Of a stretch of DNA of 58,705 bases, positions 3,749-36,690 are shown in pieces. The position numbers were made by a program, and so were the translations under genes. The notes under the pieces were generated by a model. It had not been told where the DNA came from. It made no database searches and was given only the letters and a program-made list of their open reading frames with translations. Source of the stretch: Ktedonobacteraceae bacterium. Its GTDB lineage: Bacteria; Chloroflexota; Ktedonobacteria; Ktedonobacterales; Ktedonobacteraceae. Every line of letters begins with the position of its first letter. The first letter of the stretch is position 1. Location: contig DASRDB010000020.1 in NCBI GenBank assembly GCA_035652815.1, positions 1 to 58,705 of the forward strand, read 5' to 3'.

Positions 3749-4570
3749 ATGACCTATCGTTTTCTCAATACGCAGGTGCAGGACGCGGCCACGAATATGG
3801 CGATTGATGAGGCGGTATTGTTGCATCATTTGCGCGGTGAGGCTCCGCCGACATTGCGTGTCTTTCGCTGGTCGCAGCCCTCGATTTCGCTGGGGCGTTT
3901 TCAGAGCATTGAACGCGAAATTCTCAGCGATTACTGCGAACAGCAGGGTGTGGCGCTGGTGCGGCGTCCGACGGGTGGACGCGCCGTGTATCACCGCGAT
4001 GAGTTCACCTACAGCCTCGTGATTGGCAAGCGCTATGGCGTTCCCTCCGGTATCGTGGCCTCTTACGCTTATCTGGCGCAGGGATTGATGGCCGCGCTGG
4101 CTTTGCTTGGCGTGCATGCTGAATTGAGCGACGAACGAGTGAGTAAAAACCCCTCGGCTGCCTGTTTCGCCTCCTCGACGCAGGCGGATTTGACCAGCGG
4201 CGGCTACAAGTTGATCGGCAGCGCGCAGGTCTGGAAGGATGATGCGCTGCTCCAACAGGGATCACTGCCGCTCGATGACCGCTCCGCAGAATTTTTTGCG
4301 ATGTTGCGTTTTCCCAGCGAAGAGGCCCGTCAGGAAGCCCTCGCCCAATATCGCCAGAAGACCACGCCCCTGCATTCTTTCGTGCCGGATGTCACCTGGA
4401 ATGATGTAGCGCAGGCTTTTCGTGAGGGTTTCAGCAGCGCATTGCAGGTCGAATTTGTTCCAGGAGAATTGACGGCCTCTGAATGGGAACTGACCCGGCG
4501 TCTGGTTGAGGAGAAATACCGGAAACTGGATTGGCGCAAGGAACGGATCAGTTTTATCGGTGCCTCGTAG
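3749..4570 (+). CDS. lipoate-protein ligase A / octanoyltransferase family protein (BPL/LPL catalytic domain)
   Basis: 'MAIDEAVL...PTLRVFRWSQPSISLGRFQ' and 'RRPTGGRAVYH' are LplA/LipB-family motifs. The ORF opens at 3689, overlapping the tgt end; the ATGs at 3722 or 3749 are more plausible starts. Confidence 0.7.
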   Translation: MTYRFLNTQVQDAATNMAIDEAVLLHHLRGEAPPTLRVFRWSQPSISLGRFQSIEREILSDYCEQQGVALVRRPTGGRAVYHRDEFTYSLVIGKRYGVPSGIVASYAYLAQGLMAALALLGVHAELSDERVSKNPSAACFASSTQADLTSGGYKLIGSAQVWKDDALLQQGSLPLDDRSAEFFAMLRFPSEEARQEALAQYRQKTTPLHSFVPDVTWNDVAQAFREGFSSALQVEFVPGELTASEWELTRRLVEEKYRKLDWRKERISFIGAS

Positions 4571-4576
4571 CATGCC

Positions 4577-4692
4577 ATGACAAAGACCCTTTCGCCTGTC
4601 ATCCTGAGCGCAGCGAAGGATCTCCGGCCTCGATGCACGGTCTCGCTGGGCAACCGAGATCCTGAGCGCAGCGAAGGATGACAGGTGTGTAA
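4577..4692. repeat. MITE/REP-like hairpin element, copy 1 (variant with an internally inverted 13-bp core), flanked by 9-bp direct repeats 'tagcatgcc' at 4568-4576 and 4693-4701
   Basis: The conserved arms cctgtcatcctgagcgcagcgaaggatct ... gagatcc(tgagcgcagcgaa)ggatgacagg read directly from the sequence. Intergenic. Confidence 0.8.
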
Positions 4693-4795
4693 TAGCATGC
4701 CTCTTGTGAGTGGGTACACAATGGGTTATACTTGCAGCAATATATAAAAGAATTCGTGGGCGGTTTCATTGTGATCCGTCAAAAAGGAGTTGTCC

Positions 4796-5482
4796 GTGAG
4801 CATAACCATAGAGGTGGCGCGCCGCATTCTTGAAGCGTGCAAGCAGCGCGCCAATGAATTACGGAGTCCAGTAAGTATCGCGATAGTAGATTCGGGAGGG
4901 CATCTGGTCCTCTTTGAGCGCATGATGGCCCCCTATGGCTGGGCCACTGGCAACATCAGCCTGGCAAAGGCCGCGACAGCCGTGATGTTCAACCAGTCAA
5001 CCGATTCGGTGGCCCGTTGGGGATCAGAGATTCCAGGCTTTGCCTCCAGTATGGCGTCGATGACCAATGGCCGCTTTATCATGGCCGCCGGTGGCTGGCC
5101 CATCCGTGTTAATGGCGCGACGGTCGGGGGAATTGGTGTAAGCGGTGGTAATGCGCCTGGACGCGATGATGATATTGCGCGTGCTGGACTGGCAGCAGTA
5201 GAAGGTTCGGGTGTACCCATGCAGCCTCCGCCGCAAACCTCTTATTCGCCTGTGCAACCCGCGATGCAGCCTTCCGGCGCGAATTATATGTCACAGCCGC
5301 CTGCCCGGCCTATTCAGCAGTCGGCTCAGTCATATCCGCCGGTTTATTCACAGCCGTTGTCGCCGCAGCCGCCTCCCCAGTCCTCACCGGGTTTATCATC
5401 GGGTACCGACCAGGAACAGGGGCGCAGTGATGAGCAGATTCCATACGATGATTACAATGACCCACGTGGAGGACAACAATGA
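4796..5482 (+). CDS. GlcG/HbpS-like heme-binding (DUF336) protein with a Pro/Gln/Ser-rich low-complexity C-terminal tail
   Basis: 'SIAIVDSGGHLVLFERM...G..ISLAKAATAV' and 'GGIGVSGG' are DUF336/GlcG blocks. AAGGAG lies 6 nt upstream of the GTG at 4796. The last ~90 aa are PQS-rich. Confidence 0.65.
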   Translation: MSITIEVARRILEACKQRANELRSPVSIAIVDSGGHLVLFERMMAPYGWATGNISLAKAATAVMFNQSTDSVARWGSEIPGFASSMASMTNGRFIMAAGGWPIRVNGATVGGIGVSGGNAPGRDDDIARAGLAAVEGSGVPMQPPPQTSYSPVQPAMQPSGANYMSQPPARPIQQSAQSYPPVYSQPLSPQPPPQSSPGLSSGTDQEQGRSDEQIPYDDYNDPRGGQQ

Positions 5483-6273
5483 CCCAGGGCACAAACGCGG
5501 GTGGAAGACCTGCCTATAAGCGTAACAAAGCGCGCCACCGACCCGTACTCGTAACCAGTAAAGATGAAATGGCTCCCGTTTCTGACGAGCCTGTGAAAGA
5601 CGACCTGGCAACAACAACTGAACCAGTTTCAGAGCAGCCCCCGGTGCAGGCTCGTGCCCGGCGTGGTTTGCCAAAGTTCTTTTCTACCGTTGGGAAGAAG
5701 GAAGAGACCAGCACCGACAGTACCGTTGATCCTGCCGCCGCTCGTATAGCTCGCGCCACACGGAATAAAGCGCCGCAGGCGAAAGAGGTCAAAGAGAGCA
5801 AAGAGGCAAAGAAAGCCGAGGCCAGACCCGCGCCGAAAGGCACGCCTGTTCGCCCTCCGGCACGCTCCGGCTTCAAGACGCGCTACATCTTTGGCATGGT
5901 TCTTTATCTGATTATTGCTGACTTTGTTGGCCTGTTTGAGCGGAGCTGGCTGCTGAGCGCTAAAGCCGATCGCCTGCTATTCGCCATTGGCCCCGTCCAG
6001 GTCTATACCTCGACGCTGCTTTTCCTGGCGACTCTGGTGGTCATTCTCATCGTCCTGGCGCGCTTCGATCTCATTCCGCGCAGCCTGGGAGCGATGTCCG
6101 GTTCCAGTTCAGCCCGGTCAAACAACAAAACCTCGACCTCGCAGAGCAATGCGGGCGCTGCAAAAGCATCACCTCCCGTTATGAAACAGGGCGTGAAGGG
6201 CGCGGACGATGATCTGTACCAGGAATATCGCGAAACCCGGCGCTATCTCCAACGCCGCGAACGCAAAAAGTAA
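5479..6273 (+). CDS. hypothetical membrane protein with a highly charged, disordered N-terminus
   Basis: The ATG overlaps the upstream stop (ATGA coupling). Two or three hydrophobic helices ('IFGMVLYLIIADFVGLF', 'LLFLATLVVILIVLARF'). Confidence 0.45.
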   Translation: MTQGTNAGGRPAYKRNKARHRPVLVTSKDEMAPVSDEPVKDDLATTTEPVSEQPPVQARARRGLPKFFSTVGKKEETSTDSTVDPAAARIARATRNKAPQAKEVKESKEAKKAEARPAPKGTPVRPPARSGFKTRYIFGMVLYLIIADFVGLFERSWLLSAKADRLLFAIGPVQVYTSTLLFLATLVVILIVLARFDLIPRSLGAMSGSSSARSNNKTSTSQSNAGAAKASPPVMKQGVKGADDDLYQEYRETRRYLQRRERKK

Positions 6274-6308
6274 GCCCAAATTTTTTGTTGTCGGCAACAG
6301 GAAAACAT

Positions 6309-6393
6309 GGGGCAGCCGGAAGACACCCGCAAGGACTCTACAAGCCAATTCAAATTGTAGAGGCACCCCTTGCGGGTGTCTTCCGGCTGCCCC
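6309..6393 (+). terminator. long near-perfect hairpin (26-bp stem plus a nested 8-bp stem); putative terminator or structured RNA
   Basis: ggggcagccggaagacacccgcaagg ... ccttgcgggtgtcttccggctgcccc with an inner ctctacaa/ttgtagag pair. It lies 36 bp after the stop at 6273 and is not followed by a T-run. Confidence 0.3.
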
Positions 6394-6591
6394 ACGCTGC
6401 TAATGTTGGAAAGAATATAACAATCTGGCTTCTCTCCTATGTTCAATAACTCCCAGTTTATGGTATACTTTTCTTGTTAAGTATGCAGGTATTATCTTTT
6501 CCTGTTCAGCAGGCATTCGCTTGCAAAGCGTCTTCACGCGATGTTGAGAGAAGCTAATTGGCACTTATTGAGAGTTAAAGGATAACGCGCT

Positions 6592-7164: not shown

Positions 7165-7194
7165 GAGAGCATTTCTCCTTTCACTAGCAAGGAT

Positions 7195-8199: not shown

Positions 8200-8257
8200 T
8201 ATAGATAAGATATGGACGGAGCCAATCCACTACTGACGGTGGATGAGAGGAGCGCAT

Positions 8258-9787: not shown

Positions 9788-9868
9788 TCCATCCCCCTTT
9801 TGCAATACATCGGCTTCCCGGCGCGTCTTTATACTAAGCGCATTATAGGAAAAGAAGAGGGAAGAGTT

Positions 9869-12844
9869 ATGGCTCACGCTCTCGGCGTAGCGCGACGTGG
9901 TAGCGGTTGGTCTTTGACGATGGCGGTCTTTACCCTGGCTTCGCAGCATGTTCGTCAGGCCTGGGGATTGCTTTTGTTGATCGCGCTGGGTATTTTGTCC
10001 GCTATAACATTGGTCTGCGCCATTCCACTGTATGCAGAGGTAGCCATGAGCGCCGGATTGCGCGGCACCCTCGCCAGTTACGCGCAAAATGGCGATATAG
10101 TCGTCAGCAGCGTCTCGAAAGCGGTTTCGCTTGCTGCTACCGTACAGGCAACCAGGCATCTCGACCAGGAATTTTCACGCAACCTGGGGCCATATCTCAG
10201 CGGCACAGCCGAGTTCGCGGTCGAGTCGCAGACACTTAGTATCGCATCAACCCATGATAGTGACAAAATCAATCTCACCGGCTTTCCCATGCAGGATGCG
10301 CTCCCACATGCCCATCTCTTGCAAGGACGTTTACCCCTGGCAAATAGCAGCGCATTGGAGATTGCCTTGCGACCTGAAGAGGCGAAGGGTCTCGGCGTCT
10401 CAGTTGGTTCGACCCTCCTGGTCGATGCGAACATGCTGGATAACGCCGCAGGTCTTGTAAAAGTACCTCTTCCCTTGTCCGTTGTTGGCATTTTCAACCT
10501 CGCCTCTCCCGATGATCCGTTCTGGCATGGCAACGATTTTCTCGGCTCCTCACCCGATAACAATACGGCCTATTATGGCGCGCTGGCCTCTACCTCGACG
10601 CTGCTCTCCTATCTCTACAAGCTATCAAGCCCTACGCCCTCGGTGGTTCGCCTGTATTATAGCGGTTTCCCCAATCTGCTCTGGTATTTTCATCTCGATA
10701 TCTCACGCATTACCATTCATGATTTAAACAGCATTACGCGTGGCATTCACAACGTCGAAGTTGACGCGACGAATGATATTGCCATGTACCAGCAGCCTTT
10801 TGTGCTTCAGCCTCAGGTATTTCTGGGGTCTGACGTGTTGCAGGCATACAGTGATCGTATCTCTATTGCTCAGATGCCGATTGCCAGCTTTTTGCTACTC
10901 GTTTTCCTGCTCATCCTCTTTTTTATTGCCCTGATGGTCTCGTTGCTGGTTGAACGACATGCCGAGACGATTGCCTTACTGCGCAGTCGAGGAGCGAGTC
11001 GCAAGCAAATTTTTGGCGCGCTGAGTATGCAAGGTGTGTTGCTCTGCCTGCTGGCCCTGGCAATCGGGCCATTCCTGGCTGTTCCCCTCACTACCCTGCT
11101 GGTGCAGCAAACGCTTCCCGCGAGCGATTCGGGATCGCTAAATTTGCTTGCTGGAAGCCCCTGGAGTATTGCCCTGGGAGTGTCTGGTTATGCGCTGGCA
11201 GCGGCGCTGGTGGTTCTGGTCGCCTTTAGTCTGGCTGTTTTGAGCGCGACTCGCCAGGATACGCTGGCTTTAAAACGCGAGACGGCTCGTCCTACAGTGC
11301 GCCCGCTCTGGCAGCGCCTGAACCTGGATCTGGGAATTGCGCTGCTTGCCCTGGTTGGCTTTGCCTGTATCGTGTATCTGGAAAGCGGCGTTATTCAGGA
11401 TACGCGCCAGCGCCTGTTGCTGCTTTCGCCGCTCTCCCTGTTGCAGGCGGTATGCCTATTGCTGGCGGTGACGCTGCTGTTATTGCGTATCCTGCCCCGG
11501 CTGTTGAGGGGTGGCGCGTGGTTGGCGGCGCGAAGGCGAGGCGCGACATCTCTGCTGGCGCTGGCGCAAATCTCCCGCACTCCCAGGCACGCGAGTCGCA
11601 TTACGCTCCTGCTTGCCCTGAGCATCGCCCTGGCGATCTTCACGCTCGTCTTCAACGCCTCGCAGTTCCAGCGCGTCTTCGATATCGCGGACTACCAGGC
11701 GGGAGCGGATTTCAGCGGCGAGATTCCATCAAGCATCTACACGCCGCAGCAGTTGGGGGCCGTTACAGCCAGCTACCGCCGCATTCCTGGCGTAACAGGA
11801 GCTTCGCTTGGCTTTACGCGCCAGGTTGTGACGGGCGGCTCGAATCTGAGTGTGAAGGTTGATTTTCGGGCCGTTGATAGCAACACCTTTACCTCGGCAA
11901 CGCTCTGGCCTCAGGAAGATGGCGTCCCGAATGCTTTATTTAAGCAGCTTGCCAGCAGCCATTCCCCGGCGGTGAATAGTGGTGCGCTGCCTGCCATTGT
12001 TGATGCCAATACCTGGAATGCCCTGCACCTCGCGGGCGGCGCGCATTTCTCGCTCAGCTTCTCGCGGGTCGATCCGAACCTGGACGTGGTGAACTTTGTG
12101 GCGATTGCTCAGGTGCCGGATATTCCGACGCCGGGCGATACCAGTATGCCGGTGGTCATCGCCGATTATTTGTCCTTTGCCCGGGTCTACACGCACAACT
12201 TCACTACTGCGAGTGGCTACGATGTCCCCTTGAACTACGTCTGGCTGCGCTCTAACAGCGATGAACTTGCCCTTGCCAGCGTGCGCTCGGCACTACAGAG
12301 GGGAGCATTGCGTCTCTCGCCGCTCTACGACCGGCGAGCCATCGCCGCAACCCTCTCCTACGAGCCGCTGAATCTGGCCCTGTTTGGGACGCTGGCCTCT
12401 GGGGTCGCGGTCGCGCTGCTGCTGGCCTTGATCGGCGACCTGGTTGCCTCGTGGCAGAGCGTGCGCAATCGCCTCGCACAATTTGCCCTGCTGCGCGCTC
12501 TGGGAGCGACACCCAGGCAGTTAGTGGCTGTTCTCGCCTGGGAACAGGGGATTATTTATGGTGCGGCTCTGCTCCTGGGCGTCTTATTTGGCATAGTACT
12601 GTCTCTGACCGTGTTGCCCTCGCTGGTCTTCTCTACCGTCCTGCCGAACCAGTTGACGGGCGGTGTGGGTACAGGCGACTTTTATGCCATCCAGAGCGTA
12701 CCACCCATTCGCGTAATTATTCCAACAACGCTTTTCCCTGGCTTCGCGCTGCTGGTCGGCGTGTGCGGAATTGCGCTGGGCATGATGATTTTCGTTGTTG
12801 CGCGCCCTTCGCCCGCGCAGGTAATGCGACAGGATGAAGAATAA
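9869..12844 (+). CDS. ABC transporter permease, duplicated FtsX/MacB-like family (~990 aa)
   Basis: Two halves each contain TM1, a large extracytoplasmic domain and 3 TMs, with the FtsX-type block 'LLVERHAETIALLRSRGASRKQIF'. The ATG at 9869 follows a GAGGG RBS. It is a paralog of 13827..16811. Confidence 0.75.
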   Translation: MAHALGVARRGSGWSLTMAVFTLASQHVRQAWGLLLLIALGILSAITLVCAIPLYAEVAMSAGLRGTLASYAQNGDIVVSSVSKAVSLAATVQATRHLDQEFSRNLGPYLSGTAEFAVESQTLSIASTHDSDKINLTGFPMQDALPHAHLLQGRLPLANSSALEIALRPEEAKGLGVSVGSTLLVDANMLDNAAGLVKVPLPLSVVGIFNLASPDDPFWHGNDFLGSSPDNNTAYYGALASTSTLLSYLYKLSSPTPSVVRLYYSGFPNLLWYFHLDISRITIHDLNSITRGIHNVEVDATNDIAMYQQPFVLQPQVFLGSDVLQAYSDRISIAQMPIASFLLLVFLLILFFIALMVSLLVERHAETIALLRSRGASRKQIFGALSMQGVLLCLLALAIGPFLAVPLTTLLVQQTLPASDSGSLNLLAGSPWSIALGVSGYALAAALVVLVAFSLAVLSATRQDTLALKRETARPTVRPLWQRLNLDLGIALLALVGFACIVYLESGVIQDTRQRLLLLSPLSLLQAVCLLLAVTLLLLRILPRLLRGGAWLAARRRGATSLLALAQISRTPRHASRITLLLALSIALAIFTLVFNASQFQRVFDIADYQAGADFSGEIPSSIYTPQQLGAVTASYRRIPGVTGASLGFTRQVVTGGSNLSVKVDFRAVDSNTFTSATLWPQEDGVPNALFKQLASSHSPAVNSGALPAIVDANTWNALHLAGGAHFSLSFSRVDPNLDVVNFVAIAQVPDIPTPGDTSMPVVIADYLSFARVYTHNFTTASGYDVPLNYVWLRSNSDELALASVRSALQRGALRLSPLYDRRAIAATLSYEPLNLALFGTLASGVAVALLLALIGDLVASWQSVRNRLAQFALLRALGATPRQLVAVLAWEQGIIYGAALLLGVLFGIVLSLTVLPSLVFSTVLPNQLTGGVGTGDFYAIQSVPPIRVIIPTTLFPGFALLVGVCGIALGMMIFVVARPSPAQVMRQDEE

Positions 12845-12863
12845 GCTTGTAAAGAGGTTAGAT

Positions 12864-13826: not shown

Positions 13827-16811
13827 ATGGCTGCAACCACTTCTGCCCCCGCTCTTTCTCCCCGCGCATCGCGGGCGCTTGTCCCGCCAACTATTACGCT
13901 GGCCTTTCAGCGTTTGCGCGAGGTCTGGGGCCTGTTGCTGGTGACCGGGCTTGGTATGCTCTCGGCAGTGGTGCTGGTCTGCGCCGTTCCGCTCTACTCG
14001 CAGGTTGCCATGACCGCCGGAATGCGCAGCGTCCTGGCCTCTTTCTCGCAGAACGATGATATCGTAGTGCGCACGCGCCCCAGCCTGGTCTCCACCCAGG
14101 TGATCGATGCCACCACACAGCAGCTCGCTCAAGAAATGCGCCGCAACCTGGGAACGTTCCTCGCGCCCCCGCAAATCTCCATTCAGACGCAGCTTTTGAA
14201 TATCCTGAGAAATAGCTCAACTGGCGGCTTGCAGCCCTTTGGCGGACAGATAGCGCTGATAAGTTCATCGATGGATGAAGCGCCCGCTCACGCGCAGGTG
14301 CTGGCGGGTCGGCTTCCACAGACGCTGGGCCAGAACATCGAGATTGCCATCACGCCAGATACAGCCATACATTTAGGCGTCTCGGTAGGAACAATACTCC
14401 CGGTAAGCCTGCTGCTGATTACCGGTTCAGGGCATGAAAGCCAGGTGGTGTTGAACCTGCATATTGTGGGCATTTTTACTCCTAACCAGAACGATCCTTT
14501 CTGGCATGGCAATGATTTCTCTGTCGCGTATAATTTTTATGCCCTGGTCTCGACACAGACAATTTTGAACGCGCTGAATACCATCTCAAACCAGGCTTCG
14601 CAGCATTTGCAGGCCTTTGAGGAATCGCCCGACCTGCTGTGGTATTATTCCCTGGATACTTCGCGCATCAGCGTCAATGACCTGGATACGATAATCGCCG
14701 GGCTGCAAAACGTGCAGATTGACAATGCCAACAGCTCGCAGCTACAGCAGCCGCCCTTTCTCCAGGAGACCACAACTTCGACGCTTTCGCTGCCCGTTCT
14801 GCAAAGCTTTCACAGTCGGCTCTCCATCGCACAGTTGCCGGTGAGCGCCCTTTCGGTGTTGATGCTGGCGCTGGTGTTGTTATTCGTCAGCATGATGGCA
14901 ACCCTGCTGGTCGAACGGCAGGGTGAGACGATTGCAGTTTTGCGCAGCCGGGGAGCGAGCCGCCGCCAGGTCTTTGGCTCAGTGCTGGCGCAGAGTATTG
15001 GCCTGGGAATACTGGCCCTGCTTGTAGGGCCAGTATTAGCCATTCTGATCGTTTACTGGCTCGCTCAAGTATTGCTGTCCAGCGCAAATGCCAGCGCATT
15101 CAACATCATCACCGGGAATATGCCTGCTGTCCTGGCGCTCATCGTTCCATTTGCGCTGCTTACTATAGGTATTGCGTTGCTCGCGGTGGTCTTTGCCGTA
15201 TTTAGCGCGACACAGAGAGATGTGCTGGCTATCCGGCGCGAAGCGGCACGTTCGACCCGCCGTCCTCTGTGGCAGCGTCTAAACCTGGATCTGCTGGCTG
15301 TCGTGCTTGCCCTGGTCGCTGCCGGGGTCTCGATCTATCTTACACGCTCGGGCGTGCTTGACCAACATTTGCGCCTGCTCCTGCTCTCGCCGCTTACGTT
15401 AGCCGAAGCGCTCTGTATCTTGCTGGCGGGTTTATTGCTTTTGCTGCGCGGCTTCCCCCGGTTGTTGGGCCTGGGAGCATGGCTGGCGAATCGGCGGCGC
15501 GGCGCGTCCTCTATGCTGGCCCTTGCCCAGGTGTCACGCGCTCCACAACAGGCCACGCGCATGACTTTGCTGCTGGCCCTGGCGAGTGCCTTCGCCATCT
15601 TTACCCTGATCTTCAGCGCCTCACAGACGCAGCGCGTGCAGGATGTCTCGCGTTATCAGGCCGGGGCGGATTTCAGCGGCCCCATCCCTGTCACCGTCTA
15701 CTCCTCACAGGAGATAGACCGCGTCACTCGCCTCTATAAGCGGATTCCAGGCGTCACCTCAGCAACGCTCGGCAACGTAGTGCAGGCCGAAGCTGGCAGT
15801 GCCTCGGCTCCTATCAATATCAATGTGCAGTCGGTGGACGCCAATACCTTTGCCGGTACAGGTCTCTGGACATCTCAAGATGCCTCGCAATCGCTCTCCT
15901 CGTTGATGGCGCAATTGCGCAACTTGCGTTCTGAGGCTATCACAAGTAGCGTGGTGCCTGCTATTGTGGATGCCAATACCTGGGACACGCTGCATCTTTC
16001 CGCCGGAACCGGCTTCACCCTTAAATTTCCCTCGATTGACTATTCTGCGGTGATGCATTTTATCGCGGTGGCAGAAGTGCAGCATATTCCAACACCCGGG
16101 GATAGCAGCGAACCGGAAATATTGACGGACTATCGCACCTTCGCCGAGACCTTTTCCAGCTTCTTGAGCAGCGGCGCGCTGTCGTTACCCATCAACTATG
16201 TCTGGCTGCGCACCCGCGATGATGCTCGCTCCCTGGCGAGTGTGCGCAAAGTCCTGAGCGATGGCGCGCTGCGTCTTTCCCCGCTCTATGACCGGCGCGC
16301 GATTGCCGAAACACTCTATTCCGAGCCGCTTTATCTCACGCTGATCGGCATTCTCGAACTTGGCGCGCTGGTGGCCTTGCTACTGGCCTTGATAGGCAAT
16401 CTCGTCTCTTCGTGGCTCAGTGCCCGCGCCCGCCTGACCAGCTTCGCCATCCTGCGCGCTCTAGGAGCCACTCCGTGTCAGATTGCCAGCGTCCTCACCT
16501 GGGAGCAGGGCATGATTTATGCCGCCGCGCTTCTCCTGGGCGTAATATCTGGATTCCTGCTCGCATTCCTTGCCTTGCCCGGACTGATTTTCTCAAGCGT
16601 GCTGCCCAACCAGTTCGCGGGCGATGTCTCGACCACCAGCGCGGATTTCTACGCCGCGCAGAACACGCCGCCCATCCAGATCATCACCCCGCCCTCTCTC
16701 TGGATTGCCCTGGGCGTGCTGGTTGTCATTTGTGTTATCGCGCTTGCGCTAATGATGTTCGTCGTGTCGCGGCCTACGCTCAGTCAAGCTTTGAGGCTTA
16801 ATGAGGATTGA
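13827..16811 (+). CDS. ABC transporter permease, duplicated FtsX/MacB-like family (paralog of 9869..12844)
   Basis: Shares 'NDPFWHGNDF', 'LVERQGETIAVLRSRGASRRQVF' and 'RPLWQRLNLDL' with the first permease. Its start codon directly abuts the ATPase stop. Confidence 0.75.
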   Translation: MAATTSAPALSPRASRALVPPTITLAFQRLREVWGLLLVTGLGMLSAVVLVCAVPLYSQVAMTAGMRSVLASFSQNDDIVVRTRPSLVSTQVIDATTQQLAQEMRRNLGTFLAPPQISIQTQLLNILRNSSTGGLQPFGGQIALISSSMDEAPAHAQVLAGRLPQTLGQNIEIAITPDTAIHLGVSVGTILPVSLLLITGSGHESQVVLNLHIVGIFTPNQNDPFWHGNDFSVAYNFYALVSTQTILNALNTISNQASQHLQAFEESPDLLWYYSLDTSRISVNDLDTIIAGLQNVQIDNANSSQLQQPPFLQETTTSTLSLPVLQSFHSRLSIAQLPVSALSVLMLALVLLFVSMMATLLVERQGETIAVLRSRGASRRQVFGSVLAQSIGLGILALLVGPVLAILIVYWLAQVLLSSANASAFNIITGNMPAVLALIVPFALLTIGIALLAVVFAVFSATQRDVLAIRREAARSTRRPLWQRLNLDLLAVVLALVAAGVSIYLTRSGVLDQHLRLLLLSPLTLAEALCILLAGLLLLLRGFPRLLGLGAWLANRRRGASSMLALAQVSRAPQQATRMTLLLALASAFAIFTLIFSASQTQRVQDVSRYQAGADFSGPIPVTVYSSQEIDRVTRLYKRIPGVTSATLGNVVQAEAGSASAPININVQSVDANTFAGTGLWTSQDASQSLSSLMAQLRNLRSEAITSSVVPAIVDANTWDTLHLSAGTGFTLKFPSIDYSAVMHFIAVAEVQHIPTPGDSSEPEILTDYRTFAETFSSFLSSGALSLPINYVWLRTRDDARSLASVRKVLSDGALRLSPLYDRRAIAETLYSEPLYLTLIGILELGALVALLLALIGNLVSSWLSARARLTSFAILRALGATPCQIASVLTWEQGMIYAAALLLGVISGFLLAFLALPGLIFSSVLPNQFAGDVSTTSADFYAAQNTPPIQIITPPSLWIALGVLVVICVIALALMMFVVSRPTLSQALRLNED

Positions 16812-21602: not shown

Positions 21603-21636
21603 TTCACAATGAATAAGGGCAGGACTCTGACCCGTC

Positions 21637-21757
21637 ATGAAAAAGACCCGCTCGCCTGTCATCCTGAGCGCAGCGAAGGATCTGCGTTCCCCGGCGATTC
21701 GTGCGCAGACGCCTGAGATCCTTCGCTGCGCTCAGGATGACATCTGGAGACAGGTTT
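21637..21757. repeat. MITE/REP-like hairpin element, copy 2 (canonical inverted-repeat form)
   Basis: atgaaaaagacccgctcgcctgtcatcctgagcgcagcgaaggatct ... agatccttcgctgcgctcaggatgacatctggagacaggttt. Confidence 0.85.
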
Positions 21758-21768
21758 GGAATGGGATA

Positions 21769-22269
21769 TTAATCATGAGTGGTCAGGGAGTTCAGCGCCT
21801 CTTTTAGCTGGCGATAGACATTATCCAGATGCTCTGGCATGACCTTGATATCGGCGATGACCGGCATAAAATTGGTGTCGCCCTGCCAGCGCGGCACGAT
21901 ATGAAAATGCATGTGTTCGTCGAAACCCGCGCCCGCCACCTTGCCTTCGTTGATGCCCATATTGAAGCCATCGGGATTCATGGCTTTGCGTATGGCGCGT
22001 AGGGCAAGCTGGGCCTGCGCCATCAATTCATCCAGCGTGGCGGCGTCGAGTTGTGTGATGCTGCCGACGTGCTGGTAGGGCGCGATCATCAAGTGTCCAT
22101 TATTGTACGGATAGAGGTTTAACATCATGTAGCAGCGCTCGCCACGATAGAGAATGTGATACTTTTCGTCTTCATGCGCGGCTGGCTGCGTGCAAAAAAT
22201 GCACTCCTTTGGTTGAGGAGTCTTTGGCGCGATGAAGGTCATGCGCCAGGGTGCCCATAAATTATCCAT
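21769..22269 (-). CDS. HIT-family (histidine triad) nucleotide hydrolase/transferase
   Basis: 'HMHFHIVPR' is the histidine triad. 166 aa. Confidence 0.85.
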   Translation of the reverse strand: MDNLWAPWRMTFIAPKTPQPKECIFCTQPAAHEDEKYHILYRGERCYMMLNLYPYNNGHLMIAPYQHVGSITQLDAATLDELMAQAQLALRAIRKAMNPDGFNMGINEGKVAGAGFDEHMHFHIVPRWQGDTNFMPVIADIKVMPEHLDNVYRQLKEALNSLTTHD

Positions 22270-22296
22270 GCGGTTACAGCACTATCCTACCAAACA

Positions 22297-22665: not shown

Positions 22666-22914
22666 TGTTCCTTCCCTGGCCTTTCTGGTCTCTAGCAGAC
22701 CAGTTTGCCGCGATGGCTGAGGAGGCCATCATTAAACTTTACCATAAGTTTATATAGTATACCACGTTTTCTTGTCTTTGGCTATACCTGTACGTTACTT
22801 TTAAAATGTTAGTAAAAATCGCGTTGTATTTTCTCCCTCTTTCTGCGTTTAAATCCCTTGACAAACAGGCAGTTCTGATGCTATCTTCTGTATAGCAATC
22901 AGTTATAGCTCGTC

Positions 22915-23035
22915 ATGAAAAAGACTCTCTCGCCTGTCATCCTGAGCGCAGCGAAGGTTCTAAGGCGACCGGTGGCTCGACACGACCAGCTGGAAATCCT
23001 TCGCTGCGCTCAGGATGACATCTGGCGACAGGTTT
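22915..23035. repeat. MITE/REP-like hairpin element, copy 3, flanked by 13-bp direct repeats 'gttatagctcgtc' at 22902-22914 and 23036-23048
   Basis: Read directly: ...gttatagctcgtc|atgaaaaagactctctcgcctgtcatcc...ggatgacatctggcgacaggttt|gttatagctcgtc... Confidence 0.85.
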
Positions 23036-23077
23036 GTTATAGCTCGTCGAAAACACTAAAATTTAGATAAGAGGAAT

Positions 23078-23941: not shown

Positions 23942-23944
23942 CCC

Positions 23945-25366: not shown

Positions 25367-25447
25367 GATCCACGTCTTTCTCAAATAAAGGCAAACGTCT
25401 CTCTGAGAAAATCACGTTTCTCGGGGCGAAGCTGTTTCATGGCATGC

Positions 25448-25573
25448 CATGAAACAGACCCGCTTGCCTGTCATCCTGAGCGCAGCGAAGGATCTGCGTC
25501 GCCGGGCAGCATTGCATGCTCGCACCGGAGATCCTTCGCTGCGCTCAGGATGACATCTGGTGGCAGGTTGATA
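25448..25573. repeat. MITE/REP-like hairpin element, copy 4, flanked by 'atggcatgc' at 25439-25447 and 25574-25582
   Basis: atgaaacagacccgcttgcctgtcatcctgagcgcagcgaaggatct ... agatccttcgctgcgctcaggatgacatctggtggcagg. Confidence 0.8.
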
Positions 25574-25686
25574 ATGGCATGCATGCTATTAATCAACAGG
25601 AAAAGAGATCAACTTCACAAAACAGAGGCTGCCACTCCTTTCGGAGCGGCAGCCTCTATCAGCAATTTAAAAACGCAATAACAATT

Positions 25687-27213: not shown

Positions 27214-27668
27214 GGCCTTCCTCCTTGAAGCAATACAGACGATCAATGTGCTGAACGTTTTCAAATGCTGACAATGCTACAAACACGATCAAGCAACGGG
27301 AGTTATGCAGTATCTCCTCGAAACTCATCCGACCAGGAAGCGCGGCCCTGGTTCCTGGTAGTGATGAGAAAGGATTCTCTTCATGACATGAGCAAGCAAA
27401 CCTGCATCACAGGCTTCTTCACTTCATGCCAGAATTTCAGGCCACATGTTTTTTAGGGTAGATGCGCGGAAAAGGACGCCAGAGATGAAAAAACTTCCCC
27501 AGATGGTTGTAGAACAATCAAGCTGTATATGAATACTTCACCCAGAAAGAGTATACTCAATATTATTTAAAAAATCCAGCGCTTTTGGCTGAAAAATAGA
27601 AAGTTCATTACTTTTATTTGCGTACATTTCTTACCAAAGCTTCGACATTATGTGGCAAGCCATTACAA

Positions 27669-27772
27669 TCCTGCCTCCAGATGTCATCCTGAGCGCCGCG
27701 AAGGATCTCGCGCGTGCCGGGTCGAGCCGGTGGAGGCCTGAGATCCTTCGCGGCGCTCAGGATGACAGGCGA
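27669..27772. repeat. MITE/REP-like hairpin element, copy 5 (gccgcg core subvariant)
   Basis: cctgcctccagatgtcatcctgagcgccgcgaaggatctc ... gagatccttcgcggcgctcaggatgacagg. Confidence 0.8.
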
Positions 27773-27957
27773 GAGGGGCTTTTTCGTGGCAGGCCAAAAG
27801 CAAATGCGAGAAAAAATCCATTCTGCCCAAACAAAAATTTGACCGTTTGCTTCTTAGAGCGTTTAATGTGTATAGCGGGAAAACATGGCATACTTTAGCA
27901 ATGAAGCGCGAAATGGTGCTTTAAATACACTGTTTGAAATAATGGAGGATCACCCTT

Positions 27958-29625: not shown

Positions 29626-29642
29626 AAAAACATTTTTAATGC

Positions 29643-30842: not shown

Positions 30843-30862
30843 TGCCTTTCATCCTTCAATTT

Positions 30863-31927: not shown

Positions 31928-32007
31928 CGTTATTCACCTGAGTTAAAAGTCCTCGCTATGATACCATAACCTTCTAGAACTGGCATCATCGTATTTTTCA
32001 TTCTCTT

Positions 32008-32278
32008 GTAGGGACGCGATTCATCGCGTCCAACCCCGCCTGTGGTGCATGCCGATACGCCGAGGTGGACGCGATTCATCGCGTCCAACCCCGCCTGTGG
32101 TGCATGCCGATACGCCGAGGTGGACGCGATGAATCGCGTCCCTACAGAAAAACCCGATTCTTTGGTCAAAATGCATACGCCTGTAGTGCGTGCCGATACG
32201 CCGAGGTGGACGCGATGAATCGCGTCCCTACAGAAAAACCCGATTCTTTGGTCAAAATGCATAATCGCGTCCCTACAG
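32008..32278. repeat. tandem array (units of ~55 bp x2 and ~85 bp x2), each unit starting with the palindrome ggacgcgat(t/g)(c/a)atcgcgtcc; member of a GTAGGGACGCG-palindrome family
   Basis: Read directly. Units AA then BB'. Lies between the lipoprotein start and the copCD 3' end. Confidence 0.8.
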
Positions 32279-32321
32279 CAATAGCCCCTAACATTGTCAA
32301 AGTTCATTAGAGGACAACCTT

Positions 32322-32363
32322 GTAGAGGGCGGCTTCATCGCACGATGAAGCCGCCCTCTCTAC
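32322..32363. terminator. near-perfect palindrome (17-bp stem, 3-nt loop) immediately 3' of the copC-copD stop
   Basis: agagggcggcttcatcg cac cgatgaagccgccctct. Same GTAG(A/G)GG..CG..TTCATCG theme as the repeat family above. Confidence 0.45.
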
Positions 32364-32374
32364 CATCAACCAGT

Positions 32375-34390
32375 TTAAAACGGGACGACCAGCTTGACAG
32401 TCGCTTCATGCAGCGTGTTGTCTGGAGTGCGTATCTGGATGCGAACCTGCCAGTCACCACCCATACTGAAATCGTCTGTGCCGGTGAAATGCCCTTTTCC
32501 ATCCGGCTGCAGGTTGACGTTGCTTGTACCCATGTCCATATCCAGCATGGTGTCGTACAGCGCGACGCCGACATTGGTTGTCTGTTTGCCGGTGCTGTTG
32601 TCCACTACCGTCACCGTGAAGACATTGGTGCCGAAGCGGTCTGGATTGACGTTGAGCGTAACGGTAAATTTGCCATCGGTTGTGCGCACTGTCGTCACGT
32701 AGGGCTGGTTTTTGTTGCCTTTCTGCTGCTGTTGTTGCGCCGCCGCTCCGATAGGTGTGAGCGTGCCGCCGAAGGCATTCAGCAGGCCCACGCAGACCAG
32801 CACCGCGACGCCTAACAACGGCTCCCAGCGCAGCACTCGTTCCAGGCGGCGCGTTTTCCCCGCCAACCGGTTCTCGCGCAGTTTGACTTGCTGGCTAAGC
32901 CGCCGCGTCTTGCGGTTTGTTTCAATGGTGGTCGTTGTTCCCTGCTGGCTGGCAAGGGTTGCCTGGCCTGTTACGCTGCCCTCTTCTACCTCGGCCTCCT
33001 CGACTGTCTGTAAGCGAGCCACCGCGTAGGCATATTTCTTATATTCTTTTTTCACACGCGGGCGCAGGATGCCGACGTGATACGCGCTCGTCACCAGCAG
33101 CGCGCCGACCAGCAGGATTTTTACTGCCAGCGTGCGCCCGTAGGCAGTGTCAATGAACTGGCTCCAGGAAGTCATGTGGAAGGTGGCGCTGAACGGCCCG
33201 GTAATAGCCATGATTATCACACCTGCAATTGCCAGGGGAGAAAAGTATGGCAGGACGGTTGCCAGCGAACGCGCTCGTTCTCCTAGCGAATGCTTGCCCA
33301 ATACCGGCAGGTAGGTGGTGGCGATATAGAACATGCCGCCAACCCAGAGCGCCGCCGCCATCAGGTGCAGCCAGTTCACAATGATCGCGAACGCCAGAAT
33401 ATTGCTGCTGACCGCCGCCGCGTGGCTTGACATCGTGATGGCAATGAACAGCAGGCAGCCGAGTAGCAAATTTACAAGCGGCAAAGCTGAATTAACCGCG
33501 ACTGGCCGTCGCTTGCTAAAGAGCATGTAGAGCGTGATGGCAATGGCCAGCAAAACGATTATTTCACGCGCCATCCAGTAGAAGCCGAAGCGCCCGCTCG
33601 TTGCCAATCCTATGAGTGTGTTGGGTGCGAATGCCGAAGAGACATCCCCGCCTGTCAGGTTCAGTGCCTGCCCGAAGATGACGCCGATGTTTGCCAGCAG
33701 GATCACAAGCAGCGTGGGGAGCGAGAATTTGCGCTCGAAGCGGCGCTGTACTTCCTCGTTGATCGAGCGTTCCTCCTGGTGCTTCTCAGAAGAGAGCGCG
33801 AGAACGAAGTTGAGCCAGAGCTGCGCGCCCATCCAGAAGACTGCGCCCAGCTCGACCAGCGTTACCATAATCAGGTTGACCAGTGTTGGCCCGTCGATCT
33901 GGCCCGTGTATAATCCGGTCAGGTTGCCGCCACCGAGGACATTCGCGCCTGGATTGGAGCCAGGATTGAGCGTTGGCACTGTGCCATCAGGATTTTTGAC
34001 GTAAAAGATAAAGGAGCCGCGCAGCACGTGTCCATCCACAGCCGAGTCGGTGCGATAAATCACTATGTAAACCGCAGGCGGCAGATTGGGCGACAGACTG
34101 ACATCCATTTCGGTGTTATCGCTGGCAGAAACATGCGCGTCGCGTTTATCCACGCGCACATTATTCGCGTTAATCACCACCGCCGTGCTGAAAGCAGGAT
34201 TTAAAGCCTCGCTGAACCACATTCTCACCTGTTTGGGTGGCGTTGATAATTGCGCGTCCTTCTCCGGGTCAGAACGCAACAAAATAGCGTGCGCGCTGGC
34301 AAGCGTCGGAAAGAGCAACATCAGCAGAAAAGCCAGCGGAACCGCCAGTTTCATCAGTTTGCCTATACGCCTTGTAAAAATGGATGCCAT
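32375..34390 (-). CDS. copper resistance CopC-CopD fusion protein (YcnJ-like) with an additional C-terminal domain
   Basis: Signal peptide, then the CopC block 'HAILLRSDPEKDAQLSTPPKQVRMWFSE'. Eight hydrophobic helices (CopD-like) follow, then a soluble C-terminal domain. Start at the ATG at 34390 (the ORF opens at 34417). Confidence 0.7.
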   Translation of the reverse strand: MASIFTRRIGKLMKLAVPLAFLLMLLFPTLASAHAILLRSDPEKDAQLSTPPKQVRMWFSEALNPAFSTAVVINANNVRVDKRDAHVSASDNTEMDVSLSPNLPPAVYIVIYRTDSAVDGHVLRGSFIFYVKNPDGTVPTLNPGSNPGANVLGGGNLTGLYTGQIDGPTLVNLIMVTLVELGAVFWMGAQLWLNFVLALSSEKHQEERSINEEVQRRFERKFSLPTLLVILLANIGVIFGQALNLTGGDVSSAFAPNTLIGLATSGRFGFYWMAREIIVLLAIAITLYMLFSKRRPVAVNSALPLVNLLLGCLLFIAITMSSHAAAVSSNILAFAIIVNWLHLMAAALWVGGMFYIATTYLPVLGKHSLGERARSLATVLPYFSPLAIAGVIIMAITGPFSATFHMTSWSQFIDTAYGRTLAVKILLVGALLVTSAYHVGILRPRVKKEYKKYAYAVARLQTVEEAEVEEGSVTGQATLASQQGTTTTIETNRKTRRLSQQVKLRENRLAGKTRRLERVLRWEPLLGVAVLVCVGLLNAFGGTLTPIGAAAQQQQQKGNKNQPYVTTVRTTDGKFTVTLNVNPDRFGTNVFTVTVVDNSTGKQTTNVGVALYDTMLDMDMGTSNVNLQPDGKGHFTGTDDFSMGGDWQVRIQIRTPDNTLHEATVKLVVPF

Positions 34391-34446
34391 CGTGTGTTTC
34401 CTATCTATCTCATCCATCTGTAGGGAAGCAATAATGCACTTTGATT

Positions 34447-34567
34447 ATGAAAGAGAGAATATGCAGGCCTGTCATCCTGAGCGCCGCGAAGGAGCTCCGT
34501 TCCCCGACGATTCGCACACCGACGCCAGAGATCCTTCGCGGCGCTCAGGATGACATTGCTGGGTAGA
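34447..34567. repeat. MITE/REP-like hairpin element, copy 6 (gccgcg core subvariant)
   Basis: atgaaagagagaatatgcaggcctgtcatcctgagcgccgcgaaggagctc ... gagatccttcgcggcgctcaggatgacattgctggg. Confidence 0.8.
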
Positions 34568-34639
34568 CCCTCTTTTTTTGTCAACATGCATCATCGCGTC
34601 CCTACAGAGTTCCATAGTTCAGTCAACAATCATCTACCT

Positions 34640-34669
34640 CTATATATTGTTACGCTATATATTGTTACG
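34640..34669. promoter_or_regulatory. perfect 15-bp tandem direct repeat (ctatatattgttacg x2) in the region upstream of copC-copD and downstream of the two-component system; candidate regulator binding site
   Basis: Read directly. Its position relative to the adjacent NarL-type regulator suggests a binding site, which is an inference. Confidence 0.3.
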
Positions 34670-34766
34670 CAAAAAAGATACCACGATTTCATCATCATTC
34701 GTTGCCAATAACCGAATCATATTGTCTGCCAATCCCTTTAGCGCGTCAAGCTTGGGCCTGAAAAGG

Positions 34767-35459
34767 CTAGTCAGGCGGGATCAGGCCGTAGCGGATGGCG
34801 AAACGCACCAGTTGCGTGATATCTTGCAGTCCCAGTTTCGTCATGATGTTTGCTCGATGCGCCTGAACCGTTTTGATGCTCAGCACCAGACGGTCCGCGA
34901 TCTCCTGGTTGGTATATCCTTCCGCGACGAGCTTCAACACCTCCAACTCGCGTGGAGTCAGGGCATCCAGTTCCGGCACGCTTTCCTGCCGGGACTGGCT
35001 GGTGGCCTTTTCTCCTTCGACAAATGTGCGTACCAGCGCCTTTGCCAGCCCTGGATAAAGAAAAGCGCCGCCGTGTGCCACCGCCAGAATCGCCATATGT
35101 AGTTCTGTAGGCGCGGCCTTTTTGACCAGGTAGCCAGCCGCGCCAGCCCGCAAAGCCGAGAGGAAATACTCTTCGCTTTCGTGCATGGTCAGAATCAGTA
35201 CCTGTGTCTCGGGATGCTCATGCCGGATAAGTTTGCAGGCTTCCAGGCCATCAATATCGGGCATGGTAATGTCCATGACTACCACGTCTGGCGAAAGATC
35301 GCGCGTTTTATGAATTGCCTCGCGCCCGGTACGAGCCTCGCCAATGACCTCGACATCTTCCTGCAAGCCGAGCAGCATCTTCAATCCCTGGCGCAGGATA
35401 TCGTGGTCATCCGCTAAAAGAATGCGCACTCCCTGTTTTTCAGCCGACATGGGTGACAT
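34767..35459 (-). CDS. two-component response regulator, NarL/FixJ (LuxR-type HTH) family
   Basis: REC 'ILLADDH', 'VVVMDITMPDIDG'. C-terminal HTH 'LTPRELEVLKLVAEGYTNQEIADRLVLSIKTVQAHRANIMTKLG'. Confidence 0.85.
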   Translation of the reverse strand: MSPMSAEKQGVRILLADDHDILRQGLKMLLGLQEDVEVIGEARTGREAIHKTRDLSPDVVVMDITMPDIDGLEACKLIRHEHPETQVLILTMHESEEYFLSALRAGAAGYLVKKAAPTELHMAILAVAHGGAFLYPGLAKALVRTFVEGEKATSQSRQESVPELDALTPRELEVLKLVAEGYTNQEIADRLVLSIKTVQAHRANIMTKLGLQDITQLVRFAIRYGLIPPD

Positions 35460-36513
35460 CTTTCACGTTTGCCAGGGGAAGTATGGCCTCGACAATTGTC
35501 CCACGCCCCTGCTCAGATGAGATGGACACTTTGCCGCCCAGCAGCGCCGCCCGTTCGCGCATGCCTGCGATACCCAGCCCGGTTTGCGTTGTATCCTTAT
35601 CATATCCCTGTCCGTTGTCCTGCACGCACAATAGAATGGAATCTGCCTGTTGTTTCAGCGAGACGGTGACATGTGTGGCCTGAGCGTGCCTCGCGGCGTT
35701 GGTCAGGCATTCTTGCGCAATGCGAAAGAGTGTCGTCTCGTAGAGTGACGCATTGTCCTGCTTGCTCAAGGTTGGCTCGATGTTATCGAGTTCGAGTTTG
35801 ACCGGCAACTTCAGGCGTTGCTGGCAGTCCTCGGCAAGCCAGCGAAATGCGGCCTGTAAGCCAAGATCATCGAGAACGCCGGGACGTAGTTGTAATGCCA
35901 GCGTGCGCACATTTTCAAGTGTGTTTTGCGCCAATTGCTCCAGGTGTTGCAGACCCCCTTGCAGGTTATCCCGCGCCCTTTGTTGGATGGCCGTCGGTGG
36001 CAGCTGTTGCAGCGTCTGGCGCAATATCTCTATGTGTACCAGCAGGGCCGTGAGGTTCTGGCTACTCTCATCGTGTAGTTCGCGGGCCAGTCTGCGCCGT
36101 TCCTCCTCCTGCGCCTGCAAAATGAGCATGGCCTGCTGCCGTCTCATAGCTTCCAGTTGATCGAGCATGGTGTTGAACGCCTGCGCCAGTTCGCCAATCT
36201 CCGAATCAGTGGGAATAATCGAAGCGCGTTTGTCGGTCTGCCCGGTACTGATGGCACGCATGGTGCGGATCAGGCTGAAGAGGGGCGAAAAGCTGGCGCG
36301 CAGCAGCACAAAGTTGATAGCGAGGGTAAATAGCGTGGTGGCGACGATAAAGGCGGTGTCGATGAGGTAGTGATGGGCCTCCAGGTTGTGGCTGGTAATC
36401 CAGAGTCCGGCCAGCGCTTCTCCCACTAAAATCAGGGTATTCACCAGGATAAGCTTCTCGAATAACGAAAGCTGCCGCTGCGTGCCGGTAGCCAGAGATG
36501 CTGTTTTAGCCAT
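35440..36513 (-). CDS. sensor histidine kinase (HisKA_3/NarX-DegS type)
   Basis: Two N-terminal TMs. H-box 'ELHDESSQNLTALLVHIE'. HATPase 'VQDNGQGYD...GLGIAGMRERAALLGGKVSISS'. Overlaps the regulator by 20 bp. Confidence 0.85.
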   Translation of the reverse strand: MAKTASLATGTQRQLSLFEKLILVNTLILVGEALAGLWITSHNLEAHHYLIDTAFIVATTLFTLAINFVLLRASFSPLFSLIRTMRAISTGQTDKRASIIPTDSEIGELAQAFNTMLDQLEAMRRQQAMLILQAQEEERRRLARELHDESSQNLTALLVHIEILRQTLQQLPPTAIQQRARDNLQGGLQHLEQLAQNTLENVRTLALQLRPGVLDDLGLQAAFRWLAEDCQQRLKLPVKLELDNIEPTLSKQDNASLYETTLFRIAQECLTNAARHAQATHVTVSLKQQADSILLCVQDNGQGYDKDTTQTGLGIAGMRERAALLGGKVSISSEQGRGTIVEAILPLANVKDVTHVG

Positions 36514-36553
36514 ATCGTTCGCTCACTTCCTCATCAACCGTTCCTTAAGTATG

Positions 36554-36665
36554 CTATGACCAAGCTGCCTCCAGATGTCATCCTGAGCGCAGCGAAGAAT
36601 CTCGGTCGCCAGGCAGGAGCGTCCCCCGCATCGGAGATTCTTCGCTGCGCTCAGGATGACATGTA
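36554..36665. repeat. MITE/REP-like hairpin element, copy 7
   Basis: ctgcctccagatgtcatcctgagcgcagcgaagaatctc ... gagattcttcgctgcgctcaggatgacatg. Confidence 0.8.
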
Positions 36666-36690
36666 AAGGTAGGGTTGTCATAGCGTGCTA

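Follow-up and report, generated by a model that had tools for sequence, protein, structure and literature searches.

The stretch of DNA considered here, hereafter the window, is a 58.7-kb part of a contig of a Ktedonobacteraceae metagenome-assembled genome (MAG; GCA_037025365.1), and its sequence recurs unchanged in several assemblies. Between its called genes lie seven copies (c1 to c7), all of them intergenic, of a palindromic repeat built from two inverted arms and a short centre. This repeat, its counterparts in other bacteria and the nuclease gene that accompanies it elsewhere are the subject of the present analysis.

A search of the window with the 29-nt arm CCTGTCATCCTGAGCGCAGCGAAGGATCT, in which up to 3 mismatches were allowed, returned 13 matches, with none expected from 100 dinucleotide-preserving shuffles. 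The arms lie in seven pairs, each with a forward match followed by a reverse one (that is, convergent), at 4.6, 21.7, 22.9, 25.5, 27.7, 34.5 and 36.6 kb. The total of 14 arms is made up of the 13 canonical ones, which all read (C/A)TGTC-ATCCT...AGGAT-CT or near variants of it, and the rearranged right arm of c1, whose inner 13 nt (TGAGCGCAGCGAA) are flipped into the orientation of the left arm, so that no true inverted copy is present there. A repeat finder gave the same families independently of the arm scan, and no extra copies appeared in the window at up to 7 mismatches. An earlier note on this DNA had proposed a family of seven intergenic hairpin copies resembling repetitive extragenic palindromic (REP) sequences or miniature inverted-repeat transposable elements (MITEs), and the existence of such a family of non-coding intergenic palindromic elements is borne out by these counts, as are the two sub-variants, with a cagcg or a ccgcg core, that it had distinguished. 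The dimensions given in that note have to be revised in part: the arms are indeed inverted, but the unit measures approximately 134–147 bp and not 120 bp when its conserved outer ends, which reach about 25–30 nt past each arm, are counted (192 bp in c6, which has a different outer module), and the centre is 31–33 nt long in all seven copies and not 30–45 bp. Searches of the whole window against Rfam at the gathering threshold and with a tRNA scan gave no family and no tRNA, respectively; blastn against the plasmids of PLSDB gave no match, and a full-text literature search with the arm sequence retrieved unrelated primers only.

The layout of the unit was derived from 23 unique composite copies, taken from the window and from related metagenome contigs. 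It runs from a left terminal box, T(A/G)GCATGCC, through an A-end (ATGAAAAAGACCCnCTCGCC), a left arm of 27 nt, a centre of approximately 32 nt, a right arm of 27 nt and a B-end (TCTGGAGGCAGGTTTGTAA) to a right terminal box, T(G/A)GCATGC(C), and the outer ends of the composite read GCATGCCATGAAAAAG... and ...TTTGTAATGGCATGC. Column identity is 0.98 in the arms and 0.89 and 0.84 in the A-end and the B-end, values that are partly imposed by the collecting pattern, and it amounts to about 0.6 in the terminal boxes, 0.56 in the centre and 0.36–0.40 in the true flanks. The outer 15 nt or so of the two ends match each other as inverted repeats, GCATGCCAT(G/T)A(A/C)AAA, and the 12 nt that adjoin each arm differ between the A side and the B side. 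About 20 further unique A-to-B composites were found outside the window, in metagenome contigs that apparently come from related organisms, and the family thus extends beyond the stretch in which it was noticed. The packaging of approximately 144 bp is a lineage-specific mosaic unit with a near-invariant core of two convergent TGTC-tagged REP hairpins, whose tags point outward. The seven copies of the window are listed in Table 1.

Table 1. Copies of the paired-arm element in the window, with their arms, gene neighbourhood and particulars.
Copy	Span	Strand	Arms	Centre (nt)	Neighbourhood	Particulars
c1	4568..4701	+	4595-4623, 4656-4685	31	Past the stop of a lipoate-ligase-like gene	B-type right end shortened; single-strand DNA fold only -32.5 kcal/mol, z -3.95 (arm flipped)
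c2	21627..21771	+	21655-21683, 21716-21744	32	Between convergent aldehyde dehydrogenase and HIT genes	Outer limits approximate, terminal boxes degenerate; DNA fold -42.5 kcal/mol, z -7.7; spurious 56-aa gene called across the copy
c3	22902..23048	+	22933-22961, 22994-23022		Between divergent HxlR and ABC-ATPase genes	GTTATAGCTCGTC directly repeated at both tips (22902, 23036)
c4	25439..25582	+	25467-25495, 25529-25557		Between glucose-6-phosphate dehydrogenase (G6PD) and sialidase-like genes	Left tip inside a perfect 26-nt palindrome, CTGTTTCATGGCATGCCATGAAACAG (25428-25453)
c5	27655..27797	-	27680-27708, 27741-27769		Between divergent genes	ccgcg core variant; orientation opposite to c1-c4 (B-end at left)
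c6	34417..34608	.	34468-34496, 34529-34557			Same arm type; ccgcg core; centre about 89% identical to that of c2
c7	36549..36692	.	36574-36602, 36635-36663 (GAAT variant)		Between YtkA/FixH-like and histidine-kinase genes	Span of 144 nt, limits fixed by the empty site in a relative; both outer ends B-like; DNA fold -51.5 kcal/mol, z -11.1

Folded as single-stranded DNA (ssDNA), the whole elements have energies of -42.5 to -51.5 kcal/mol (z -7.5 to -11), c1 excepted. The arms of c6 sit in a different outer inverted repeat, which ends in CTGTAGGGA.../...TCCCTACAG and is common to the tandem repeats at 32.0–32.3 kb. These tandem repeats form a second family, at 32007-32307 (also at 34590-34607 and 52555-52579), with units of 55 and 86 bp around the palindrome GGACGCGATGAATCGCGTCCCTACA, and it is the outer part of this family that makes up the ends of c6. 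In addition, pairs of sigma-70-like hexamers at 23034-23062 and 27642-27669 overlap the B-type ends of c3 and c5 and face the downstream ABC-transporter genes, where the element ends might supply promoter elements.

Read as a single strand, each arm has the form 5'-GTC-ATCCT-GA-GC-(GCA)-GC-GA-AGGAT-C-3', from which a hairpin can be proposed that consists of a 5' GTC tag, a 5-bp stem, a tandem G.A/A.G mismatch, 2 bp, a 3-nt loop and a 3' C. The pairing within the arm was evaluated on 48 distinct arms, gathered with a pattern that fixes only GTCAT...ATC. In this set 95.5% of the cells are paired, compared with 23–51% in slid controls, and changes on both sides occur in five of the seven pairs (C-G/U-A/G-C at one position and G-C/A-U at another). 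Doubly changed cells number 25, against 6.3 +/- 2.0 in shuffles, none of which (0/500) reaches the observed value. Among the fully paired variants, 31 of 38 retain the tandem G.A, and in four loci (L133, L219, L227 and L236) insertions in the loop lengthen the stem with complementary sequence, which further supports the arm hairpin.

The arm is by no means confined to this lineage. When genomes were scanned, one for each species, the exact 26-mer GTCATCCTGAGCGCMGCGAAGGATCT turned up in at least 118 stretches from at least 12 phyla: Patescibacteria, Acidobacteriota, Chloroflexota, Omnitrophota, Planctomycetota, Bacillota, Bacteroidota, the alpha- and gamma-Proteobacteria, Gemmatimonadota, Nitrospirota, Verrucomicrobiota and Actinomycetota, including the isolates Hymenobacter glaciei, Pedobacter sp. 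AK013 and Legionella massiliensis. The arms in these loci are mostly convergent pairs 12–87 nt apart (four pairs are 207–346 nt apart), and across many phyla one and the same arm is set in outer sequences that differ widely. The exact 26-nt arm is also present, in some cases as pairs, in 26 stretches of predicted viral contigs of IMG/VR (L255-L280); no GIY-YIG open reading frame (ORF) was found in these 26 stretches, which may be prophage or host DNA.

The gene that accompanies the arms elsewhere is best introduced through the system that it resembles. SsnA is a GIY-YIG protein of 94 aa that binds the hairpin repeat NTS (CGTCATTCCCGCGMAVGCGGGAATCYRG) solely as ssDNA and on one strand, cuts a few nucleotides upstream of it and loses cleavage in the mutants Y6A, Y17A and E64A; the 3 nt upstream of the palindrome and the C that follows it are critical, and 42% of ssn homologues are flanked on either side by a member of the wider class of Ssn-related motifs, SRM (Chenal et al., Nat Commun 2025; PMC11893778). 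These authors noted the resemblance of the 'NTS-ssnA-NTS' layout to an insertion sequence, an idea offered as a hypothesis only (PMC11893778). A hidden Markov model run over every ORF in 1.98 Mb of loci selected for their arms identified eight small GIY-YIG ORFs of 92–100 aa, six of which are bracketed by a forward arm 37–167 nt upstream and a reverse arm 23–143 nt downstream; in one of these six the two arms co-vary (GTCATTCCGAGCGTAGCGAGGAATC / GATTCCTCGCTACGCTCGGAATGAC). All four ORFs scanned with Pfam consist of a single PF01541 domain (93–96 aa), and Y6, Y17, G19, R27, H31, E66 and N85 are invariant in all eight, a set whose Y6, Y17 and E66 fit the three inactivating mutations of the 94-aa SsnA. 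NCBIfam has no model for these ORFs, and a search of the PDB gave only a weak match, to 1zg2 (UPF0213; E = 0.002). By their length, domain, residues and layout, the arm-bracketed ORFs are likely Ssn-type nucleases. The Ssn-like protein is 70–76% identical across Chloroflexia, Planctomycetota, Acidobacteria, cyanobacteria and Verrucomicrobia, and this near constancy of both protein and site across phyla is consistent with the two having spread horizontally as a pair. None of the 120 best protein hits was an Ssn under a Ktedonobacteraceae name.

Comparison with relatives of the window organism reveals how the elements behave over shorter times. Empty sites were located through the 90%-cluster members of neighbouring genes; G6PD homologues at 81–85% identity, tried as another route, failed since synteny was not kept. 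Loci of 8–21 kb from six relatives contain no arms. At the c7 site, two relatives (L253/L254) with flanks 90–95% identical to those of the window are without positions 36549-36692, with 4 nt between the aligned blocks, and the DNA that they do not have comprises a terminal box at each of its ends ((TA)GCACGCTATGAC ... GTCATAGCATAC when read in that orientation). At the c4 site, c4 is likewise missing from L246/L247, in which the G6PD protein is 95% and the DNA of the flanks about 90% identical. The empty site of L246 already has the outer half of the c4 palindrome (TGTTTCAT), and the empty c7 site (L253) also has TTTCAT; with two sites only, this may be target microhomology with the ATGAAA end of the element.

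These empty sites bear directly on the direct repeats at the flanks of the elements, which the earlier note had interpreted as target-site duplications. The three repeats exist exactly where they had been described, GTTATAGCTCGTC at 22902/23036, TAGCATGCC at 4568/4693 and ATGGCATGC at 25439/25574, and they coincide with the terminal boxes, that is, with the semi-conserved T(A/G)GCATGCC tips of the composite (column identity about 0.6 vs about 0.38 in true flanks). A duplicated target is not supported by the two sites at which an empty and a filled state were compared: around c7 the comparison with L253/L254 shows no repeat of 3 nt or longer, and the GCATGC box is absent from the empty c4 site of L246/L247. 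Since both boxes are missing at the empty sites, they belong to the element, which is gained or lost as a whole. The 9-bp repeats at c1 and c4 are largely a consequence of the palindromic GGCATGCC core. Moreover, in L222 (7405-7700) two tandem composites share one box, with the same 28-nt right end on both sides, which implies that at least some of the 'duplications' are the tail of a neighbouring or ancestral copy; tandem copies such as this one suggest a junction or tandem intermediate.

A classical MITE, namely a deletion derivative of approximately 144 bp of a DDE-type insertion sequence, mobilised in trans through its terminal inverted repeats, leaving target-site duplications of 9–13 bp and carrying the arms as internal cargo, is on this evidence quite improbable. 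The general description of a MITE does apply, given that the elements are short and non-coding, vary in presence between relatives and have inverted outer 15 nt and 27-nt arms, and the loss of the whole unit, ends included, at the empty c7 site is what would be expected of one. The two boxes of one copy also resemble each other, in direct orientation, more than boxes of different copies do (mean of 5.43 of 9 positions vs 4.74 +/- 0.21; p = 0.0014; 23 copies), with a 13/13 match in c3 and the same deviation from the consensus shared by both boxes in c5 and in L220. Against this stand the arrival of the boxes with the element and the lack of a duplication at c7, discussed above, as well as the variable length of the apparent repeat (9, 13 and 28 nt), the longest case being the right end of the adjacent tandem copy in L222. 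In 2 Mb of loci, the outer-end motifs lead to the arm and to no transposase gene, the exceptions being chance matches or a flipped or truncated arm; no parent insertion sequence with the same outer ends was found there, and the conservation of the arms in many phyla with different surroundings is difficult to reconcile with their being cargo.

The arms themselves are subject to frequent internal change. In L251, which derives from a strain 99.0% identical to that of the window, a tract of approximately 24 nt makes the second arm of c5 a direct copy of the other arm, which itself shows a GCGGC-to-GCTGC change, and positions 32012-32373 of the window are replaced (4248-4417 of L251) by another arm pair, GTCATGCTGAGCGCAGCGAAGCATC / GATGCTTCGCTGCGCCCAGCATGAC, with a compensated ATGC/GCAT stem. 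A flip of the 13-nt core like that of c1 recurs in L152, L237 and L222, and also in L251 (8663-8688), and L154 carries a collapsed single hairpin, GTCATCC-TGAGCGCAGCGAA-GGATGAC, which is the expected deletion product between a normal and a flipped arm. The recurrence of flips and tracts identifies the arms as hot spots of conversion. A 19-nt difference at c5 in L122 proved to be a scaffold gap of Ns and no polymorphism.

Such recurrent conversion is one of the reasons for considering that the elements act at the level of RNA, as bidirectional terminators or mRNA-stabilising hairpins, or else serve the host as DNA sites (through restriction of incoming ssDNA by Ssn, as in Neisseria), and that they do not move at present and owe their spread chiefly to recombination and gene conversion. 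Their 27-bp inter-arm stem is very stable, c1, c4, c6 and c7 lie downstream of genes, c2 takes the place of an ordinary GC hairpin between convergent genes, and in Neisseria SsnA together with NTS lowers transformation about 5-fold (PMC11893778). On the other hand, no copy is followed by a T-run and none matches Rfam, the divergent genes on either side of c3 and c5 have no need of a terminator between them, RNA is not bound by SsnA (PMC11893778), and the clean absence of 144 nt between flanks 90–95% identical requires insertion or precise deletion and not conversion only, so that this explanation appears unlikely. A simple terminator scan flagged no copy, although its loop limit of 8 nt could not detect the long hairpin. 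The notion that the elements are REP or REPIN sequences (paired REPs) mobilised by a REP-associated tyrosine transposase (RAYT) of the IS200/IS605-like HUH type, a partner that the earlier note had in mind, can be regarded as very improbable. The outline is certainly alike (short tagged palindromes in inverted pairs, with a 20–100-bp spacer, between genes; PMC3733652), and the authors of the Ssn study draw the REPIN analogy themselves (PMC11893778), but the tag is TGTC and not GTAG, the gene between the arms in the examined loci encodes a GIY-YIG nuclease, and Di Nocera et al. found no CGTC/TGTC repeats that flank a RAYT or a different transposase (PMC3733652); no link to a TnpA of this type was found.

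Taken together, the paired TGTC-tagged hairpins, their covariation and the GIY-YIG genes that lie between identical arms in other bacteria make it probable that the Ktedonobacteraceae elements are mosaics of approximately 144 bp built from paired TGTC REP hairpins, the gene-less counterpart of cassettes that carry an Ssn gene. The relation between REPINs and the RAYT gene serves as the model for that between the gene-less pair and the Ssn-gene cassette. By analogy with Neisseria, Wolbachia and related experiments (PMC11893778), the single-stranded state of DNA during replication, repair or uptake would allow a nuclease of the Ssn type to bind the arm hairpin in a strand-specific way and to nick a few nucleotides 5' of the arm, so that a convergent pair would receive one cut outside the pair on each strand, and this activity would maintain or spread the elements. 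Such a scheme supposes that a cognate Ssn is encoded in this genome, that it would act on the present stem variant and that it, rather than recombination or another enzyme, would spread the elements.

Several observations weigh against the interpretation of the elements as gene-less Ssn cassettes. Neither the 58.7-kb window nor the loci that carry the same composite contain a GIY-YIG ORF. The published SRM pattern, HGTCWYN(0-2)YYVSBRHN(0-5)WNVSBRGN(0-2)RNCYNB, has no match on either strand of the window, while the NTS control does match it; the arm fails this pattern because its stem is longer and contains G.A mismatches. Nearest-neighbour DNA folding of a single arm does not predict the proposed hairpin (-4.4 kcal/mol, z 0.0, under an energy model in which tandem sheared G.A pairs are not represented), the hairpin of the Neisseria NTS is predicted by the same parameters (-9.0 kcal/mol, z -4.5), and the structure that is strongly predicted is the long inter-arm hairpin with its 27-bp stem. 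Furthermore, not all sites speak for clean insertion: approximately 100 nt are replaced, net, at the c4 site, and at the c2 site the same two convergent genes are separated, in more distant relatives (L248/L249), by a GC-rich hairpin of unrelated sequence, which again indicates replacement. Finally, the boundaries of the composite lie some 25–30 nt outside the arms, whereas the cut made by SsnA is no more than a few nucleotides away from its motif, on the upstream side, so that Ssn cleavage alone does not explain where the composite ends.

A further-reaching proposal is that the arm pair, with or without the gene, is a true mobile element whose 'transposase' is the GIY-YIG ssDNA nuclease of approximately 95 aa. 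There would then be a prokaryotic superfamily of GIY-YIG transposons, of which the gene-less composites of Ktedonobacteraceae would be the non-autonomous (REPIN-like) form, still inserting and excising, and the direct repeat of the terminal boxes would be the footprint of an unusual intermediate, for instance a circle or a tandem junction. The empty sites, the tandem copy and the identity of site and protein across phyla are compatible with this proposal and are no proof of it, and we regard it as tentative and rather doubtful.

Other features of the window deserve a brief description. A type I-D-like CRISPR-Cas locus occupies positions 44087-58705, in a stretch of low GC content (0.41–0.45), with genes for a DEAD/ResIII helicase, Csc2, a WYL regulator, Cas4 and Cas1 and an array in which the 37-nt repeat GTTGGAAAGAGGTTTGACGCGATTGGGCGATTGAAAC occurs 50 times or more and which runs past the end of the window. 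TACCAGGGCGGGGCAAGCCCACGCCCCTACCATA and its complement, 34 nt each and perfectly inverted, lie 6 nt apart at 39782-39855, inside an ORF (38775-40418) with the domains N6_Mtase, Eco57I and TaqI_C, and may be a third REP-like family inserted in the gene. Two adjacent paralogous ORFs of approximately 1000 aa, at 9800-12844 and 13827-16811, are about 70–76% identical at the DNA level in several segments, at a constant offset of 3961–3967 nt, and an ABC-ATPase-like ORF lies between them.

The repeats described here are real and non-random, yet they are part of a system that has already been described. What is new is a widespread-looking stem variant that the published pattern misses, the unit of approximately 144 bp, and the pairs of empty and filled sites together with the conversion tracts. 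The 26-nt motif is present in soil, freshwater, gut and rumen bacteria and is probably among the commonest unannotated repeats of MAGs and a source of spurious ORFs. The link to Ssn widens the recognised targets of this nuclease family past the published search pattern and provides a naturally different site for a class of enzymes that has been proposed as an ssDNA tool. The empty and filled pairs are the first to suggest that hairpin cassettes turn over as units, and with them the question of how CGTC REPs spread, unanswered since 2013, becomes testable.

With regard to known systems, the arm is treated as a variant SRM and a probable member of the CGTC-REP superfamily. Like the SRMs, to which the Neisseria NTS/dRS3 repeat belongs, it is an oriented hairpin repeat that occurs between genes in many copies and has GTCAT as its 5' tag and a C next to the end of the palindrome (all 13 canonical arms have the 5' GTC(A/T)(C/T) tag and the C of the SRM definition), and, like SRM, it is found in many phyla, convergent on both sides of single-domain GIY-YIG genes of approximately 94 aa. 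It differs from NTS, which has a perfect ATTCCCGC stem, in its ATCCT-GA-GC stem with tandem G.A and a 3-nt loop, and from SRM in that it does not conform to the degenerate published pattern and that the pair is enclosed here in a longer unit with conserved ends and documented gain and loss. The REPs tagged with CGTC or TGTC were catalogued in 2013 as sequences whose stems open with A-T and then T-A, arranged mostly in inverted dimers with 20–100-bp spacers and 'apparently lacking a dedicated transposase' (Di Nocera, De Gregorio and Rocco, BMC Genomics; PMC3733652). The arm shares with them the tag, the start of a stem of approximately nine positions, a short unpaired tail and the inverted dimer; in contrast, their loop has 4–5 nt and their tail is CCA, while that of the arm is CT(N), the loop has 3 nt and two stem positions are G.A mismatches, and Chloroflexota lie outside the five phyla listed in that work (PMC3733652). 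The similarity to REPIN/RAYT and to BIME and NIME lies in the gene-less inverted tagged palindromes that mirror the flanks of a single-copy nuclease gene and in the modular mosaics formed with other repeats (c6 and the cassette swap of L251). The difference from REPIN/RAYT resides in the tag and in the enzyme, which has a GIY-YIG fold rather than HUH-Y1, and mobility by the associated enzyme is, in the present case, a hypothesis.

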